DNA of 64,000 nt from NCBI RefSeq assembly GCF_056712565.1, contig NZ_CM160072.1, one strand, 5' to 3'. Within the stretch, counting starts at the first letter, position 1. The number at the start of each line of letters is the position of its first letter. The position numbers were made by a program, and so were the translations under genes. A model generated the notes under the pieces. That model was not told the origin of the DNA, did no database searches, and saw only the letters and a list, made by a program, of their open reading frames with translations. Positions 3,882-10,906 of the stretch are shown piece by piece.

Positions 3882-4735
3882 GCACCATCCTGAAATGGGC
3901 GGGAAATAAAACCGCCATTATGTCCGAACTGAAAAAGCATCTTCCTGCTGGCCCGCGACTGGTTGAACCTTTCGCGGGTTCCTGTGCAGTGATGATGGAG
4001 ACGGAGTACCCCAGCTATCTTGTTGCGGATATTAATCCTGATTTAATCAACCTCTATAAAAAGGTTGCTGCTGATTGTGAATCGTTTATATCTCGCGCCA
4101 GAGTTTTATTTGAGATCGCAAACAGGGAGGTGGCTTATTACAACATAAGGAAGGAGTTTAATTACTCAACTGAAATTACTGATTTCATGAAAGCGGTATA
4201 TTTCCTGTATCTCAATCGTCACGGTTACCGTGGTTTATGTCGCTATAACAAGAGCGGGCATTTCAACATTCCCTACGGCAATTATAAAAATCCGTATTTC
4301 CCTGAAAAAGAAATTCGCGCATTTGCAGAAAAAGCCCAGCGAGCAACGTTTATCTGCGCCAGCTTTGATGAAACGCTGGCGATGTTGAAGGCGGGGGATG
4401 TGGTGTATTGCGATCCACCGTATGACGGTACGTTTTCCGGCTATCACACTGACGGCTTCACTGAAGATGACCAGTATCACCTGGCATCTGTTCTTGAACA
4501 TCGGTCATCAGAAGGACATCCGGTCATTGTTTCTAACAGTGACACATCCCTGATCCGTTCGCTGTATCGCAATTTTACTCACCACTATATCAAGGTAAAA
4601 CGCATCATCGGTGTGGCAGCTGGCGAGGGTAAATCAGCAACAGAAATCATTGCTGTTTCCGGGCCGCGCTGCTGGGTGGGATTTGATTATTCGCGTGGCG
4701 TGGATAGTTCTGCCGTGTACGGAGTACGTGCATGA
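3878..4735 (+). CDS. dam: DNA adenine methyltransferase (Dam-like N6-adenine MTase), prophage-encoded
   Basis: N-terminal SAM-binding region KWAGNK...EPFAGS and catalytic DPPY motif (VYCDPPYDG); start ATG 3878 after GGAG. Confidence 0.85.
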
Positions 4736-7146
4736 GCCATGCCGATATGAACAACTGCTGCGGCTTTAACGAGGCTGCCGCAGCGTTCTCATGGAACAGC
4801 CCGAAAAAGGCCATTAACCCTTATCTGGACCCGGCGGAAGTTGCGCCGGTTTCTGCGCTTTCAAACCTGATCACTCTGTACGCTGCCGATAACGAGCAGG
4901 AACAGTTGCGCCGCGAGGCACTGAGTGATCAGGTCTGGGAGCGTTATTTTTTTAATGAATCACGTGATCCTGTCCAGCACGAAATGGAGCAGGATAAGCT
5001 CATTAGCCGGGCAAAGCTGGCGCATGAGCAGCAGCGTTTTAATCCGGATATGGTCATTCTGGCGGACGTCAACGCCCAGCCTTCCCATATCAGCAAGCCG
5101 CTGATGCAACGTATTGAATACTTCAGCAGCCTGGGCAGGCCAAAGGCTTATTCCCGCTATTTACGTGAGACGATTAAGCCATGTCTGGAACGACTGGAGC
5201 ATGTACGCGACAGCCAGCTATCTGCATCTTTTCGTTTTATGGCAAGCCATGTAGGGCTGGACGGCCTGCTGATTCTGCCTGAAATGAGTCAGGATCAGGT
5301 GAAACGCCTGTCTACCCTTGTCGCTGCGCATATGAGCATGTGCCTTGATGCAGCTTGTGGTGATTTGTATGCCACCGATGACGTTAAGCCAGAAGAAATC
5401 CGCAAGACATGGGAAAAGGTGGCAGCGGAAACCCTGCGTCTGGATGTCATCCCGCCTGCGTTTGAGCAACTCCGTCGGAAAAGAAACCGCCGTAAACCCG
5501 TGCCCTATGAACTCATTCCGGGTTCGCTGGCGCGTATGTTGTGCGCCGACTGGTGGTACCGGAAATTATGGAAAATGCGTTGCGAATGGCGGGAAGAGCA
5601 GTTGCGTGCTGTCTGCCTGGTCAGCAAAAAAGCATCTCCCTATGTCAGCTATGAAGCCGTGATGCATAAACGTGAGCAGCGCCGCAAGTCACTGGAGTTT
5701 TTCCGTTCTCATGAACTGGTGAACGAAGAGGGCGACACGCTGGATATGGAAGACGTGGTAAACGCCAGCAGCAGCAACCCGGCGCACCGCCGCAATGAGA
5801 TGATGGCCTGTGTTAAAGGTCTGGAGCTTATCGCGGAAATGCGCGGTGACTGCGCCGTTTTCTACACCATTACCTGTCCGTCACGTTTCCATTCCACGCT
5901 CAATAACGGCAGACCAAACCCAACCTGGACAAATGCGACGGTAAGACAAAGCAGCGATTATCTGGTCGGCATGTTTGCTGCATTTCGTAAGGCGATGCAC
6001 AAAGCCGGGTTGCGCTGGTATGGCGTGCGGGTGGCTGAGCCGCATCATGACGGTACAGTTCACTGGCACCTGTTGTGTTTTATGCGCAAAAAAGACCGCC
6101 GCGCCATTACTGCATTGTTGCGTAAGTTTGCCATCCGTGAAGACCGCGAGGAACTGGGTAATAACACTGGTCCACGCTTTAAATCTGAGCTGATAAACCC
6201 GCGCAAAGGAACGCCGACAAGCTACATCGCGAAATACATCAGTAAGAACATTGACGGGCGTGGTCTGGCTGGCGAGATCAGCAAGGAAACGGGTAAATCC
6301 CTGCGTGATAACGCTGAATACGTTAATGCCTGGGCGTCTCTGCATCGTGTTCAGCAATTCCGCTTCTTTGGTATTCCAGGGCGTCAGGCTTACCGTGAAC
6401 TGCGGTTGTTGGCTGGTCAGGCGGCAAGGCAGCAGGGTGACAAAAAAGCAGGTGCGCCGGTACTGGATAACCCGCGCCTTGATGCCATCCTGGCTGCTGC
6501 TGATGCTGGCTGTTTTGCCACCTACATTATGAGGCAGGGCGGCGTGCTGGTTCCTCGCAAATATCACTTGATCAGAACCGCTTATGAAATCAATGAAGAG
6601 CCGACCGCCTATGGCGATCACGGTATTCGTATTTATGGCATCTGGTCACCCATTGCAGAAGGCAAGATCTGCACTCATGCAGTGAAGTGGAAAATGGTTC
6701 GTAAAGCCGTTGACGTTCAGGAGGCGGCAGCCGACCAGGGCGCTTGCGCCCCTTGGACTCGTGGCAATAACTGTCCCCTTGCTGAAAATTTGAACCAACA
6801 AGGGAAAGACAAATCAGCTGATGGGGATACCAGGACGGACATTACCCGCATGGATGACAAGGAGTTGCACGATTACCTGCACAGTATGAGCAAAAAAGAG
6901 CGCCGGGAACTGGCTGCAAGGTTACGCCTGGTGAAACCGAAACGGCGTAAAGACTACAAACAGCGAATTATAGACCATCAGCGACAGCAGCTCGTCTATG
7001 AACTGAAGTCCAGAGGATTTAATGGCAGCGAGAAAGAGGTCGATTTACTCCTTCGCGGCGGCAGTATTCCGTCAGGAGCAGGCCTGCGTATCTTCTATCG
7101 GAACCAGCGTTTGCAGGAAGATGATAAGTGGCGAAACCTGTATTAA
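4732..7146 (+). CDS. A: Replication initiation endonuclease gpA (rolling-circle, P2 A family)
   Basis: 804-aa ORF downstream of the early operon; HxH (VHWHLL) and tyrosine-rich nicking region; synteny with P2/186 gene A. Confidence 0.85.
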
Positions 7147-7299: not shown

Positions 7300-7488
7300 A
7301 TGCAGGACTATTTTTTGGAGTCTTTGAAGCTCCAGCGCATTGATTTTTTTCTTAAGCTTGTAGCGGCTAGTGAGTGTAGTGATGAAGAGAAGGGGCTGGC
7401 TTTGCAGTGGGTTTCTGAACTGACAGATGAACTCATGGCAAAAATCAGAACCCACGAATACAACCGCTCAATGGATGTCATCAGCTGA
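7300..7488 (+). CDS. Small hypothetical protein (62 aa), probably SOS-regulated (Tum-position gene)
   Basis: ATG 7300 with AGGAGG RBS; immediately downstream of LexA box. Confidence 0.45.
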   Translation: MQDYFLESLKLQRIDFFLKLVAASECSDEEKGLALQWVSELTDELMAKIRTHEYNRSMDVIS

Positions 7489-7498
7489 GGTGACCTTT

Positions 7499-7732
7499 AT
7501 GCGCATTGAAATAATGATCGATAAAGAGCAGAAGATTAGCCAGTCTACCCTGGACGCCCTTGAATCCGAGCTTTACCGCAATCTGCGCCCCCTGTATCCC
7601 AAAACGGTAATTCGCATCCGCAAAGGTAGCTCTAACGGTGTGGAACTGACCGGACTGCAACTGGACGAAGAAAGAAAACAAGTGATGAAGATTATGCAGA
7701 AGGTGTGGGAAGACGACAGCTGGCTGCATTAA
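7499..7732 (+). CDS. dinI: DinI-like protein
   Basis: MRIEIMIDKEQ...WEDDSWL resembles E. coli DinI (MRIEVTIAK...WESADDWF); co-transcribed behind LexA box. Confidence 0.7.
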   Translation: MRIEIMIDKEQKISQSTLDALESELYRNLRPLYPKTVIRIRKGSSNGVELTGLQLDEERKQVMKIMQKVWEDDSWLH

Positions 7733-7891
7733 GAAAAGTTGCTGGCGTCTGAACTTGGTTCTGGCGTCAGCAAGGTTGAACAACGAGTACAGTGAGGCGT
7801 TAGGTGTGGCGTTTATTTGATGAGTGAACGCCCGTTCTGCGATAGGTTCGGAGATTAAGGTTGAAACTACGGGCAAAATACCATCTTTTTC

Positions 7892-8317
7892 CTACTTAAT
7901 TGAGTCCAGTAACAAGTTACAGTTACTCTCATTGTAGAGAGAACGAGCAATTAGTGTTACCTGCTTTCCATTCATTCCCGGCTTATCCCATAACACAGCT
8001 TCTTGCGACGCCACAAATTCAGCATAATCAATTATGCGTTGTTCGTGATCTGGTTCCTCATAGCCAAAGTATGAGAGCGCATCGTTGTAAGCGTGGTAAG
8101 CTGCTTTCTGTAATATCTTGATATCGGCTGTAGGTACTTGCTCCGTGTAGCTAGGATCTAATTGTGTGCTACTGCCATAGAATGCACATGAAAGGTAAGA
8201 TATTGATTTCTGTTGAGCTTTAGTTCCTTTCTCATAGTTTTTAGCTGTTACCGCCTGAACAGGGACGCTAACAAAGCTTGCAACCAGAATTAAAATTAAT
8301 ACGTAAAAGCTTTTCAT
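7892..8317 (-). CDS. Secreted hypothetical protein (141 aa) with signal peptide; accessory cargo
   Basis: N-terminus MKSFYVLILILVASFVSVPVQA is signal-peptide-like; AT-rich; lies between dinI-like gene and cos. Confidence 0.6.
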   Translation of the reverse strand: MKSFYVLILILVASFVSVPVQAVTAKNYEKGTKAQQKSISYLSCAFYGSSTQLDPSYTEQVPTADIKILQKAAYHAYNDALSYFGYEEPDHEQRIIDYAEFVASQEAVLWDKPGMNGKQVTLIARSLYNESNCNLLLDSIK

Positions 8318-8590
8318 TTTGACCTCAGCCGAAACGTTAGAGAGACTATCGAAATTTGTAAAACCCGTGGCGATTCAGTTTGAGATCCTCCCCCTTACAT
8401 GATTTTTAATCAAATATATGCTTTTGTAAGCATACCTGTTAACCGAATTATTTATTTTTAGAGATCTTCCGACATACTGATTATGCCCGCTGAGGAGTTC
8501 ACCTTGCGTAAAGTCCGATTCGCTTTACTCGTCTGTGCATGTCTATGCTGCATGAGATTGCATGATCGTTTGAGGATCGTTTTTGCTAAG

Positions 8591-8615
8591 GCCCGCCAGA
8601 ACTGGCGGGCTTTTG
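8591..8615 (+). terminator. Rho-independent terminator-like hairpin
   Basis: GCCCGCCA-GAAC-TGGCGGGC followed by TTTTG. Confidence 0.5.
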
Positions 8616-8659
8616 CGTAGATCATGCTCCTGCATGAAAACCACTACATAAAGCGGGCA

Positions 8660-8678
8660 GGCGTGGCGGGGATACGAG
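8660..8678. other. Putative cos (cohesive-end) site of the prophage
   Basis: GGCGTGGCGGGGATACGAG resembles the 19-nt P2/186 cohesive-end sequences as I recall them (GGCGTGGCGGGGA...); lies upstream of portal Q as expected. Confidence 0.45.
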
Positions 8679-8692
8679 CGCGCGCTTGCACC

Positions 8693-8721
8693 TTGATATT
8701 CACGGTTTGGTTAAGTATTGT
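8693..8721 (+). promoter_or_regulatory. Putative sigma70 promoter of the protease operon
   Basis: TTGATA - 17 bp - TATTGT, about 40 bp upstream of ATG 8762. Confidence 0.35.
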
Positions 8722-8761
8722 CTTAGTCAGAGTCCATAACATATTACAGAATGGAGTTGTT

Positions 8762-9409
8762 ATGATTGGTCCTGAATATGTCGTAGTTGTTGGCGTGCTT
8801 AATGCAGGTTTGGTTAGTTTTTTAGGAACAGGTTTTTTTATTTCTAAGGATAAAATAATTACTTCCCGCCATGTTATTAATGGGTTTTCTTCTAACTTAG
8901 TTATTTCTCCATCTAATATAAATAACTTTAATAGTTATCAGGATACAAGTGTTGATAAATTTCAATGTATTGGAGTTGATGTTATTGATGAAGATCCAAT
9001 AAAAGACTTATGTGTGTTAAAAATTAAAAATGCACCTGTTTATGAACCTTGCCTAAAAATTGCTACTCTTGACGATGTTAATGTCGGTGAAGATGTGGGT
9101 ATTTTAGGTTTCCCACATTGTAATGAAAATAGAAAAGTATTGACATTTCAAACGGCAAAAATAGGTGCAAAAGTTTTACTTTCAAGCAGTAATATTCAAT
9201 CTAAACATGCCGTTATAAATATCCAAACCAGACCTGGTCAATCGGGATCGATTGTATTTAATTTAAAAAATGACTCGGTAATAGGCGTCTTGGTTGGCGC
9301 TTATGCAAATAATTCTGGAGGTTCTGTTTTGGTTGGAGGTATTAATCCAGCTGAACTACATCAGACAACTTATGCGGTTTCTGCAGAATATGTTAAGGAT
9401 ATGTTATGA
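8762..9409 (+). CDS. Trypsin-fold (S1/chymotrypsin-like) serine protease, 215 aa; accessory cargo
   Basis: Catalytic triad contexts in order His (ITSRHVING), Asp (DLCVLKI), Ser (RPGQSGSIVF); GGAG RBS; very AT-rich; track ORF 5' extension to 8624 would cross cos. Confidence 0.8.
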   Translation: MIGPEYVVVVGVLNAGLVSFLGTGFFISKDKIITSRHVINGFSSNLVISPSNINNFNSYQDTSVDKFQCIGVDVIDEDPIKDLCVLKIKNAPVYEPCLKIATLDDVNVGEDVGILGFPHCNENRKVLTFQTAKIGAKVLLSSSNIQSKHAVINIQTRPGQSGSIVFNLKNDSVIGVLVGAYANNSGGSVLVGGINPAELHQTTYAVSAEYVKDML

Positions 9410-9852
9410 TTGCTATACCAAATGAAGATGCTGAGTCTTGGTTGTCCACTTTAAAAACGTATCAATCTTCATCTGTCAGGAATTTTCTCGAAAATGGCGA
9501 TGAAGAAAAGGCTCTTGAGCTATGGCTAACTGCATCTGGCCCAAGTTCAGTTGCTCAATTTGGCGGTGATAATTCAAAAATGCCGGGAAGAAAAGCGTTT
9601 GTTGAGCAGTTTAAATTAGAGTTTAAGGCTTTTGTATGTGGAGGTGATAAATATGCAGAGGAGAGGGAATGTTTAGGAGCACTGACTGGTGATGTTAAAA
9701 CATACTTTGTAGGGGTGATCTCTTCGGCAATTGCGGGTTCTTTGGGGGCAACAGCAACATTTATTGCTCCAGCTGTAGTAATTATGTTGATAGCTGTCTC
9801 AAAAATGGGAATTAATGCTTGGTGTTCATTAGAGACAACGACAGAATCTTAG
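9406..9852 (+). CDS. Small protein (148 aa) with C-terminal hydrophobic membrane anchor; partner of the protease
   Basis: ATGA start/stop overlap with protease gene (translational coupling); C-terminal segment YFVGVISSAIAGSLGATATFIAPAVVIMLIAVS is hydrophobic. Confidence 0.7.
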   Translation: MIAIPNEDAESWLSTLKTYQSSSVRNFLENGDEEKALELWLTASGPSSVAQFGGDNSKMPGRKAFVEQFKLEFKAFVCGGDKYAEERECLGALTGDVKTYFVGVISSAIAGSLGATATFIAPAVVIMLIAVSKMGINAWCSLETTTES

Positions 9853-9854
9853 GA

Positions 9855-9879
9855 AAACGCCCTTTTAGGGCGTTTTTTT
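9855..9879. terminator. Bidirectional rho-independent terminator between cargo operon and portal gene
   Basis: AAACGCCC-TTTTA-GGGCGTTT followed by T-run and preceded by A-run; overlaps Q stop codon. Confidence 0.7.
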
Positions 9880-10906
9880 ATAAATCATAATGCTGAAATC
9901 GGATAGTTTTCTCACCTAACCATTCATTAACTTCCATTATTCTTTTTTGGAGTGGAATTAGTTCATTTCTAACAAAAACCTTACTCGCCTTCTCCACATC
10001 CCCAAACCCTCCAACATTATTAGGCATTATCCCCATCATTTGTGGCGGCACACGATGCGCCGCCATCATGTCGTCCCGGCTCACGTTCTTGATATTCAGG
10101 AACTCATCCTTCGCCGCCACTTCTGACAACGGGATAATCTGAAGCCCGTCCTTTTTACCGTTAGGCGAGTACATAAACAGGTTACGGAAGTTACCAGGAC
10201 CTTTGGCACTTTTCATCGCGTTGCGGAGATTGTTCACATCCTCCTGATTCTGCGCGGCATCGGTCATATACATGATGAAGCCTGCATGGCTGCCGTTGAT
10301 GTAATACTTGCGGCGGAACAGCGTGGCGGACTTATTGAGCAGGGCTGACGGAATGGCAGAAAGATAGCCGGGCAGGCCGTAGATCTCCTGGTTGATGTCC
10401 GGTTCCATCAGATGAAAAATGCTGCCTTTCGTGAACTGATACGGCTGGGTTGTCATACCGTATTGCACAAACCAGTAGGTATCCAGGTCTAACCCGCGTC
10501 GGGTGTATTTTGCCAGCGCAGGATCAAGGGCGATAACTTCACCGAATCGGTTCGTGCGTTTCTCCAGGTAGGCGTTACCAAATACCAGATAGTCCTGCAC
10601 AAAACGCGAAAAAGCCTGCTGGCTGAGCAGCGGATGAGGGATATAGGTACTGGTCAGAATGTTGCACTTTACTGCAATCGGAGAACTGTGATGCACGGCG
10701 GCGCGGAAGGTGCGCGCCAGTCCGTCAAAGCTGACGGGCGGCTCATACCAGCGATCTGTCTGTACGCATTCCACATAGTCCAGCAGTTCACGGCGGTCCA
10801 GAACAGGAACGGGATCACCGAAGCTGAATGCTTCGGCTGAAGTCTGGCTTTTATGCTGGAGCTGGTTCGTCGACGCAGCGCGGTTCTTCTTACTCTTTCC
10901 CATCAA
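9878..10906 (-). CDS. Q: Portal protein gpQ
   Basis: 342-aa ORF; first leftward late gene; size and position as P2 Q. Confidence 0.9.
   Translation of the reverse strand: MMGKSKKNRAASTNQLQHKSQTSAEAFSFGDPVPVLDRRELLDYVECVQTDRWYEPPVSFDGLARTFRAAVHHSSPIAVKCNILTSTYIPHPLLSQQAFSRFVQDYLVFGNAYLEKRTNRFGEVIALDPALAKYTRRGLDLDTYWFVQYGMTTQPYQFTKGSIFHLMEPDINQEIYGLPGYLSAIPSALLNKSATLFRRKYYINGSHAGFIMYMTDAAQNQEDVNNLRNAMKSAKGPGNFRNLFMYSPNGKKDGLQIIPLSEVAAKDEFLNIKNVSRDDMMAAHRVPPQMMGIMPNNVGGFGDVEKASKVFVRNELIPLQKRIMEVNEWLGEKTIRFQHYDL

Follow-up and report, generated by a model that had tools for sequence, protein, structure and literature searches.

Phage P2 carries tin and old on the minus strand beside cosR, and their mRNA starts about 150 nt from cosR. 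Prophage-encoded envelope lipoproteins such as Cor, Llp and Bor/Iss confer lysogenic conversion. The interval from gpA to gpQ, which includes cos, has been described as the P2 defense hotspot (Rousset et al., 2022; PMC9122126). Partition systems and toxins are also found in it (Rousset et al., PMC9122126), so residence there is no proof of a defense function. Surveys of defense hotspots focus on cytoplasmic nucleases, ATPases and abortive-infection systems, and small exported proteins stay “hypothetical”. The protein described here is listed in that way in Table S5A of the P2 survey, alongside HIRAN, DUF262/DUF1524 or Trypsin_2 partners (PMC9122126).

Two small exported proteins from other systems are relevant to this locus. 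T4 Spackle (gp61.3) acts in the periplasm, where it inhibits the gp5 tail lysozyme, and it brings about superinfection exclusion (PMC7677548). Its signal peptide is cleaved, and the protein is a small and compact bundle of alpha-helices with a single disulfide close to the N- and C-termini (PMC7677548). The type VI secretion (T6SS) immunity protein Tai4 inhibits the Tae4 amidase and is likewise an all-helical bundle with a cleaved leader and an N-to-C disulfide (PMC3695027).

We analyzed a window of 64,000 nt (contig NZ_CM160072.1, assembly GCF_056712565.1), in which a leftward gene next to cos encodes a small protein with a predicted signal peptide. Its family is unnamed, sits in a known kind of locus and was already catalogued as “hypothetical”. 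What is new here is the definition of the family, a confident fold model, the independence of the gene from the PDC-M35 pair across cos, and its apparent origin as the orphan of a two-gene cassette. The gene is an uncharacterized moron with an inferred role, worth recording and unsurprising.

Location in a P2-like prophage

The element that carries the gene is a 186/P2-like prophage of E. coli. The queried 1 kb is 100% identical in SF-468, MS15052 and APEC O1:K1:H7 isolates. The RefSeq gene order in the identical prophage is CI repressor, CII, Fil, Dam methylase, replication endonuclease A, a 62-aa hypothetical protein, a DinI-like protein, the gene studied here (on the opposite strand), S1 peptidase, a hypothetical protein, portal and terminase. 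The gene and cos lie between gene A and gene Q:

4732–7146, plus strand: gene A
7499–7732, plus strand: DinI-like gene, a conserved backbone neighbor outside the cassette
7892–8317, minus strand: coding sequence of the secreted protein, ATG start, 141-aa precursor (WP_000834899.1, “hypothetical protein”, PHROG 7437)
8660–8678: cohesive-end sequence, located by alignment, inside the P2-family cos block at 8535–8687
8762–9852, plus strand: S1 peptidase (8762–9409) and a protein with one transmembrane (TM) segment (9406–9852), PADLOC PDC-M35A/B
9878–10906: portal gene Q

The original prediction described a 141-aa protein encoded leftward next to cos, in AT-rich DNA, with the orientation of P2 tin/old opposite to the early genes. 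RefSeq annotates the same coding sequence in identical prophages as WP_000834899.1, in agreement with the ORF coordinates; PHROG 7437 is labeled “unknown function”. The window sequence at 8660–8678, GGCGTGGCGGGGATACGAG, aligns with the annotated cosL/cosR of P2, GGCGAGGCGGGGAAAGCAC, and the surrounding block at 8535–8687 is common to Fels-2, RE2010 and Klebsiella P2-like phages. This P2-type cos is located between the gene and the S1 peptidase, and the gene lies 343 nt to the left of the cohesive end. Its strand is opposite to that of gene A and the DinI-like gene. The ORF has a GC content of 40.4%, and windows over 8001–9500 have 35–40%, versus 51–61% in gene A and the capsid/terminase genes. 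The described position, orientation and base composition were all confirmed by these results. AT-rich DNA of this kind is often silenced by H-NS in E. coli.

The gene for the 62-aa protein (7300–7488, plus strand; PHROG 698, unknown) and the DinI-like gene at 7499–7732 form a conserved backbone pair downstream of gene A. In the relatives from Klebsiella aerogenes, the 62-aa gene is kept and the DinI gene is missing.

The gene was found at 99% identity or higher in 100 of 5426 complete E. coli genomes. Its flanks match 1277 E. coli genomes, and only 100 of those have the gene. It is therefore dispensable, being missing from about 92% of related P2-like prophages. The position between gene A and gene Q, the proximity to cos and the variable presence in related prophages are those of P2 hotspot cargo. 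The gpA–cos–gpQ location and the presence in 100 of 1277 genomes thus support the earlier assignment as accessory prophage cargo in the P2 tin/old slot. Besides ExPEC/APEC strains (SF-468, the CSF isolate MS15052, and APEC O1:K1:H7), the carriers include commensal and animal isolates.

Independence from the cargo across cos

The two genes on the other side of cos encode a 215-aa S1/trypsin-like peptidase and a 148-aa protein with a C-terminal TM helix, which match PDC-M35A and PDC-M35B with E-values of 4.5e-94 and 4.3e-58. The true start of the peptidase is the ATG at 8762, as in RefSeq and after GGAG; the ORF-list start at 8624 runs across cos. The pair corresponds to system #93 of Rousset et al. 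(2022), with 35 occurrences (PMC9122126), and is a separate candidate defense system. A literature search on WP_000834899.1 and on PDC-M35 found no publication.

We collected 31 loci carrying the gene to compare their cos-right segments. The distance between cos and the gene was constant in all 31, and the cos–portal segment fell into at least 20 unrelated classes. The cos-left cassette was invariant in the IMG/VR loci (L019–L050 and L002–L005), with a fixed 218-nt spacing to cos. By sequence reading, the cos-right cargos included a KAP-NTPase-like protein, DprA+PRTase, a HipA-like pair, reverse transcriptase proteins, AAA+HNH and an SMC-like protein. K. aerogenes loci had AIPR, nSTAND1 or DUF4325, and some loci had no cargo. 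The presence of at least 20 cos-right cargos beside an invariant gene places the secreted protein outside PDC-M35 and the other cos-right systems; obligate co-occurrence with PDC-M35A/B was not borne out.

An ecotin-like inhibitor of the adjacent S1 peptidase was considered and rejected. There was no ecotin Pfam match, the two genes are on opposite sides of cos, and their co-occurrence is not conserved. The neighbors of the gene are frequently defense candidates, among them PDC-M35, PDC-S11, AIPR and nSTAND1 and, by sequence reading, DprA+PRTase-like, retron-like reverse transcriptase and other defense-type genes.

Signal peptide and predicted fold

The coding sequence divides into two predicted parts:

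8252–8317, minus strand: predicted Sec signal peptide MKSFYVLILILVASFVSVPVQA, codons 1–22, with predicted cleavage after VQA and no lipobox
7895–8251, minus strand: predicted mature periplasmic domain of 119 aa, 13.4 kDa and pI 5.1, with five helices

The precursor starts with Lys2, a 17-residue hydrophobic core and Val-Gln-Ala at positions −3 to −1, followed by Val-Thr after the predicted site. The Kyte-Doolittle hydropathy (15-residue window) reaches its maximum of 2.85 at residue 6 and never exceeds 0.9 elsewhere. In the AlphaFold2 model of the full-length protein, the N-terminus is an isolated low-confidence helix of residues 3–16. These hallmarks of Sec export, found in this protein and in all 16 family members scanned, bear out the earlier description as a secreted, signal-peptide-bearing protein.

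The mature sequence was modeled by AlphaFold2 with an 18-sequence alignment at a pLDDT of 95.3 and a pTM of 0.88. The model is a five-helix bundle with helices at mature residues 3–28, 41–62, 69–88, 98–108 and 111–118. In precursor numbering, Cys44 is in helix 1 and Cys133 is at the start of the last helix. Judging from the invariance of both cysteines, a Cys44–Cys133 disulfide could staple helix 1 to the C-terminal helix. The signal peptide and structure predictions that had been proposed as a check thus gave a Sec signal with no lipobox and a confident helical model. The protein had also been described as having no recognizable catalytic motif, and our searches agree, since no enzyme family or enzyme-like fold was matched.

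A small family on mobile elements

An HMM search of 1.84 billion representative proteins gave 17 matches, of which 14 were small proteins of 94–168 aa. We disregarded the three weakest matches, which were 433–1585 aa long and matched in many short stretches. The full-length homologs are from K. aerogenes (90% identity) and from Hafnia alvei and an IMG/VR prophage (77%), with others at 24–40%. Across this range of 24–90% identity, the homologs retain the same invariant residues, Cys44, Trp110, Tyr128, Asn132 and Cys133, and the best-conserved stretch is DYAEYVASQEAVLWDKPGMN. Every inspected full-length member (126–168 aa) starts with a signal peptide whose site is of the AxA type, and no lipobox was found among the 16 members scanned. 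The mature forms of 18 sequences are 109–124 aa and 12–14 kDa with a pI of 4.5–5.9, and each has exactly two cysteines.

The protein had no match in Pfam, NCBIfam or PADLOC, and no Pfam family at E ≤ 5 was common to any two of 15 members. The family profile (A3) gave no match at E ≤ 10 against all PDB chain sequences, and a Foldseek search of BFVD with the model gave nothing at E < 0.001. A tblastn search of the INPHARED phages had no match, so no sequenced isolated phage carries the gene. No homolog was found in a scan of species-representative genomes. The family is very small and restricted to mobile elements of Enterobacterales.

The mobile elements themselves are diverse. In a Hafnia P2-like prophage, the homolog is in the S–V slot, between tail gene S and baseplate gene V, and is followed by PDC-S11. 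At this locus (L006, 6624–7640; Hafnia alvei), a two-gene cassette precedes a 338-aa protein that matches PADLOC PDC-S11 with an E-value of 8e-110. The P2 orf30 slot is also a cargo or defense hotspot in Hafnia. Other homologs are found at integrase-adjacent prophage ends, at a prophage end beside a tailspike gene and umuDC, on a Salmonella plasmid beside a mer transposon, and on a ParA/ParG element. Homologs with 27–32% identity are on IncFIB non-mobilizable plasmids of 105–113 kb from E. coli and Citrobacter (L017/L018), which resemble SSU5-type phage-plasmids, judged by their phage N-6-adenine methyltransferase and DUF4942 genes. An annotated LprI-family lysozyme-inhibitor gene is a few kb from the homolog on these plasmids. 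The elements at L008, L010 and L062, from different Enterobacterales, are all inserted at one place in the chromosome, flanked by mqo/ecotin on one side and an AI-2E transporter gene on the other, which looks like a recurrent integration hotspot.

Distant members are found in arrays amid small signal-peptide proteins of 116–231 aa (L010, 5267–7635; L062, 1852–5917; L063, 3166–5584). The order in L010 is a 2-TM protein, the homolog and three further secreted proteins. L062, an island beside ecotin/mqo, has a secreted 154-aa protein, the homolog and a secreted 165-aa protein, and L063 is similar. Two recurrent types of these neighbors (151/154 aa and 157/165 aa) have a cysteine in helix 1 and a C-terminal “NC” motif. 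Their hhalign probabilities against the family are 17–56%, for the most part from alignment of the signal peptide or of the final 19 residues, which weakly suggests paralogy with these neighboring secreted proteins of 151–165 aa. The arrays of small secreted proteins may be mobile “periplasmic protein islands”.

Loss of a partner gene

A gene for a membrane protein of 215–219 aa lies directly 5′ of the homolog on the same strand in Hafnia (L006) and in a K. aerogenes prophage (L010, L011, L053). The Hafnia and K. aerogenes partners are homologous, with 29% identity and an E-value of 3e-18. The partner has two N-terminal hydrophobic segments, a loop with four Lys/Arg residues between them, and then a domain of about 165 aa. 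The charged loop suggests that this C-terminal domain is periplasmic; Lys/Arg residues after the second TM segment leave the topology ambiguous. The partner family occurs in three lineages only, and the searches with it gave no annotation and no PDB, phage or plasmid match.

Only the end of this gene is left in the window:

8337–8423, minus strand: decayed relic of the partner gene, about its last 28 codons (tblastn 59% identity over 29 aa; Hafnia DNA alignment)

The relic has in-frame stops, and its spacing to the start codon of the secreted protein is preserved. It is also present at all K. aerogenes P2-slot loci and is identical in kind at 28 IMG/VR loci of the E. coli type. The break point is 82 nt before the partner stop codon in 100 of 100 E. 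coli genomes, none of which has an intact partner. With only about 28 codons of the partner left in all 100 copies, the E. coli gene is an orphan. Judged from these sequence relationships, the cassette once had two genes, for a membrane protein and a secreted protein, of which only the second survives in E. coli. At least seven of about ten family contexts have neither partner nor relic, and the secreted protein evidently functions, or at least persists under selection, alone. The partner was found once with an unrelated downstream gene.

The ratio dN/dS was 0.18–0.26 in all six pairwise comparisons. Between E. coli and K. aerogenes, both of which are orphan lineages, it was 0.175. This strongly supports purifying selection on the gene even after the loss of its ancestral upstream partner.

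Expression signals and cassette ends

The signals around the gene are the following:

8323–8326, minus strand: Shine-Dalgarno sequence GAGG, 5 nt before the ATG at 8317
8413–8442, minus strand: putative sigma-70 promoter TTAACA–18 nt–TATATT, a 10/12 consensus match only
7866–7891, minus strand: remnant of the cassette terminator hairpin, marking the end of cassette homology

The Shine-Dalgarno sequence is conserved in K. aerogenes and Hafnia (AAGG). The −35 element of the predicted promoter is in the P2 backbone flank and the −10 element is inside the partner-gene relic, which makes it a putative junction promoter; promoter-like sites of this kind numbered 4 in the region versus 2.4 expected. 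A perfect 7-bp inverted repeat, TATGCTT-ACAA-AAGCATA, lies at about 8415–8432 (minus strand) within the spacer of the predicted promoter. It is exactly at the junction of the P2 backbone and the cassette relic; K. aerogenes has it and Hafnia does not. The repeat might serve as an operator, form a hairpin or be the scar of a recombination event.

Hafnia retains the terminator hairpin GGGGC-TTT-GCCCC in full, whereas the E. coli version has decayed, and the homology stops about 25 nt past the stop codon. A candidate terminator at 7735–7773 (minus strand) folded no better than shuffled sequences (z = −0.25).

Proposed function and alternatives

From its place in anti-phage hotspots and by analogy with Spackle and Tai4, we tentatively favor a reading in which the secreted protein protects the lysogen as a binding or inhibitor protein in the periplasm. 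The gene is an autonomous moron of the cos-proximal hotspot, with predicted leftward expression from the putative junction promoter, and is part of a small cassette that moves among temperate phages, phage-plasmids and plasmids of Enterobacterales. The exported mature protein, an acidic helical bundle of 13 kDa, would bind another periplasmic protein and perform no catalysis. The benefit may be protection of the lysogen's envelope, most likely through stoichiometric neutralization of a factor that comes into the periplasm or is active there. One candidate ligand is a tail-associated lysozyme or an ejection protein of a superinfecting phage, which would lead to superinfection exclusion in the manner of T4 Spackle. 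A second is an effector that degrades peptidoglycan and is delivered from a competitor, following the logic of T6SS Tai4/Rap immunity. In the ancestral cassette, the ligand was probably the C-terminal domain of the 2-TM protein, and the orphaning of the gene points to this domain as a concrete candidate.

The original prediction had offered superinfection exclusion or envelope modification as roles. In our family, PDB and BFVD searches, the protein matched none of the known proteins of exclusion, immunity or envelope modification, either in sequence or in fold, and nothing suggests enzymatic envelope modification by this protein.

A broader form of the proposal, which we consider unlikely, is that the family represents a new type of periplasmic “gatekeeper”, disseminated by the temperate phages and plasmids found in Enterobacterales. 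The disulfide-stapled bundle alone would then block phage genome entry or neutralize incoming cell-wall hydrolases. With the 2-TM protein in the inner membrane, it might ancestrally have formed a two-component entry barrier, functionally like T4 Imm and Sp but unrelated to them. The secreted-protein arrays would mark mobile “periplasmic immunity islands”.

Among the alternatives, the relation to the lost partner suggests that the secreted protein may be an orphan antitoxin or immunity protein. The 2-TM partner would be the active component (possibly toxic, holin-like or abortive-infection) and the secreted protein only the neutralizing or regulatory half, its periplasmic antagonist; the E. coli copy would be kept to neutralize related modules on incoming elements, or would not yet have decayed. 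Homologous partners precede the gene in two very different contexts at deep divergence, and the 3′ relic, always with the same break point, precedes the gene in each P2-slot copy from E. coli and K. aerogenes. The four-Lys/Arg loop would put the C-terminal domain in the periplasm together with the secreted protein. However, the at least seven of about ten contexts lacking partner and relic, the partner with an unrelated downstream gene, and the continued purifying selection in orphans argue against this reading. The partner also has no similarity to T4 holin T or any toxin family, and its topology is ambiguous given the Lys/Arg residues after the second TM segment. We regard this explanation as doubtful.

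A host-directed fitness or virulence factor is a less probable explanation still. The protein could, for example, resist host lysozyme or antimicrobial proteins, or have a periplasmic stress or chaperone role. It is predicted to be periplasmic and acidic, ExPEC/APEC strains carry it as well as animal and commensal isolates, and the homologs on SSU5-like phage-plasmids are a few kb from the LprI-family gene. However, no Pfam match to the lysozyme inhibitors Ivy, MliC/PliC, PliG or LprI/DUF1311 was shared by any two of 15 members at E ≤ 5, and there was no similarity to Spy/CpxP or any other Pfam family. The distribution tracks one prophage lineage rather than a pathotype, and anti-phage candidates dominate the neighborhood.

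The T4 protein RI is a secreted antiholin paired with holin T, and the ancestral pair of a secreted protein and a membrane protein of about 218 aa formally resembles RI and T. The protein might accordingly act in the phage cycle, as a periplasmic, antiholin-like regulator of lysis timing or as an aid to DNA entry or release of the carrier phage. The likeness is formal: T is a membrane protein of about 218 aa with a large extracytoplasmic domain, but the 2-TM partner has two hydrophobic segments versus one in T, and the hhalign probabilities were 0.06% for the secreted protein against RI and 0.2% for the partner against T. The pair lies outside lysis cassettes, as does the gene in every P2-like context, and a homolog is also on a non-phage plasmid. 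With the gene dispensable and missing from about 92% of related P2-like prophages, a role in the phage cycle is improbable.

It is equally improbable that the gene has no function and travels with the cos-left flank as what is left of a broken cassette. The destroyed upstream gene, the decayed terminator and the near-clonal E. coli copies (at least 99%, so that ORF intactness alone says little) might suggest this. Against it, dN/dS is low even between two orphan lineages, an intact ORF is found in E. coli, in K. aerogenes and, within another type of prophage, in the 77% variant, and the Shine-Dalgarno sequence and promoter-like site are retained.

If the favored reading of periplasmic protection is true, the protein would be a compact single-gene barrier at the envelope level against phage entry or injected cell-wall toxins. 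Roughly 2% of the E. coli sequenced so far, ExPEC and APEC lineages among them, would have such a barrier, which would bear on host range in phage therapy.

Comparison with known systems

The gene shares with the tin/old cargo of P2 its slot, the leftward orientation from a cos-proximal start, the AT-rich composition, and its variable and dispensable nature. In contrast to this protein, which carries an export signal, Tin and Old are cytoplasmic, and they are non-homologous to it. Cor, Llp and Bor are lipoproteins, whereas none of the 16 scanned members of this family has a lipobox with its +1 cysteine.

Homology to T4 Spackle was rejected at an hhalign probability of 0.2%, and a same-fold test was also negative. 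The Y. pestis pesticin immunity protein Pim was likewise rejected (0.2%). For the immunity proteins Tai4 and Rap (Rap1a-Rap2a), profile A3 gave no PDB-chain match at E ≤ 10 and there was no Pfam match; we found no convincing fold relationship, and no T6SS or Tae-like gene was present in about 15 family contexts. Small helical bundles are common. With homology to neither Spackle nor Tai4, the relation is one of analogy and not of membership. The architecture of Spackle and Tai4, with a cleaved leader, an all-helical bundle of about 10–13 kDa and a conserved N-to-C disulfide, is also predicted for the protein described here, in which the putative disulfide would join Cys44 and Cys133. Spackle and Tai4 both neutralize a cell-wall hydrolase that arrives from outside.
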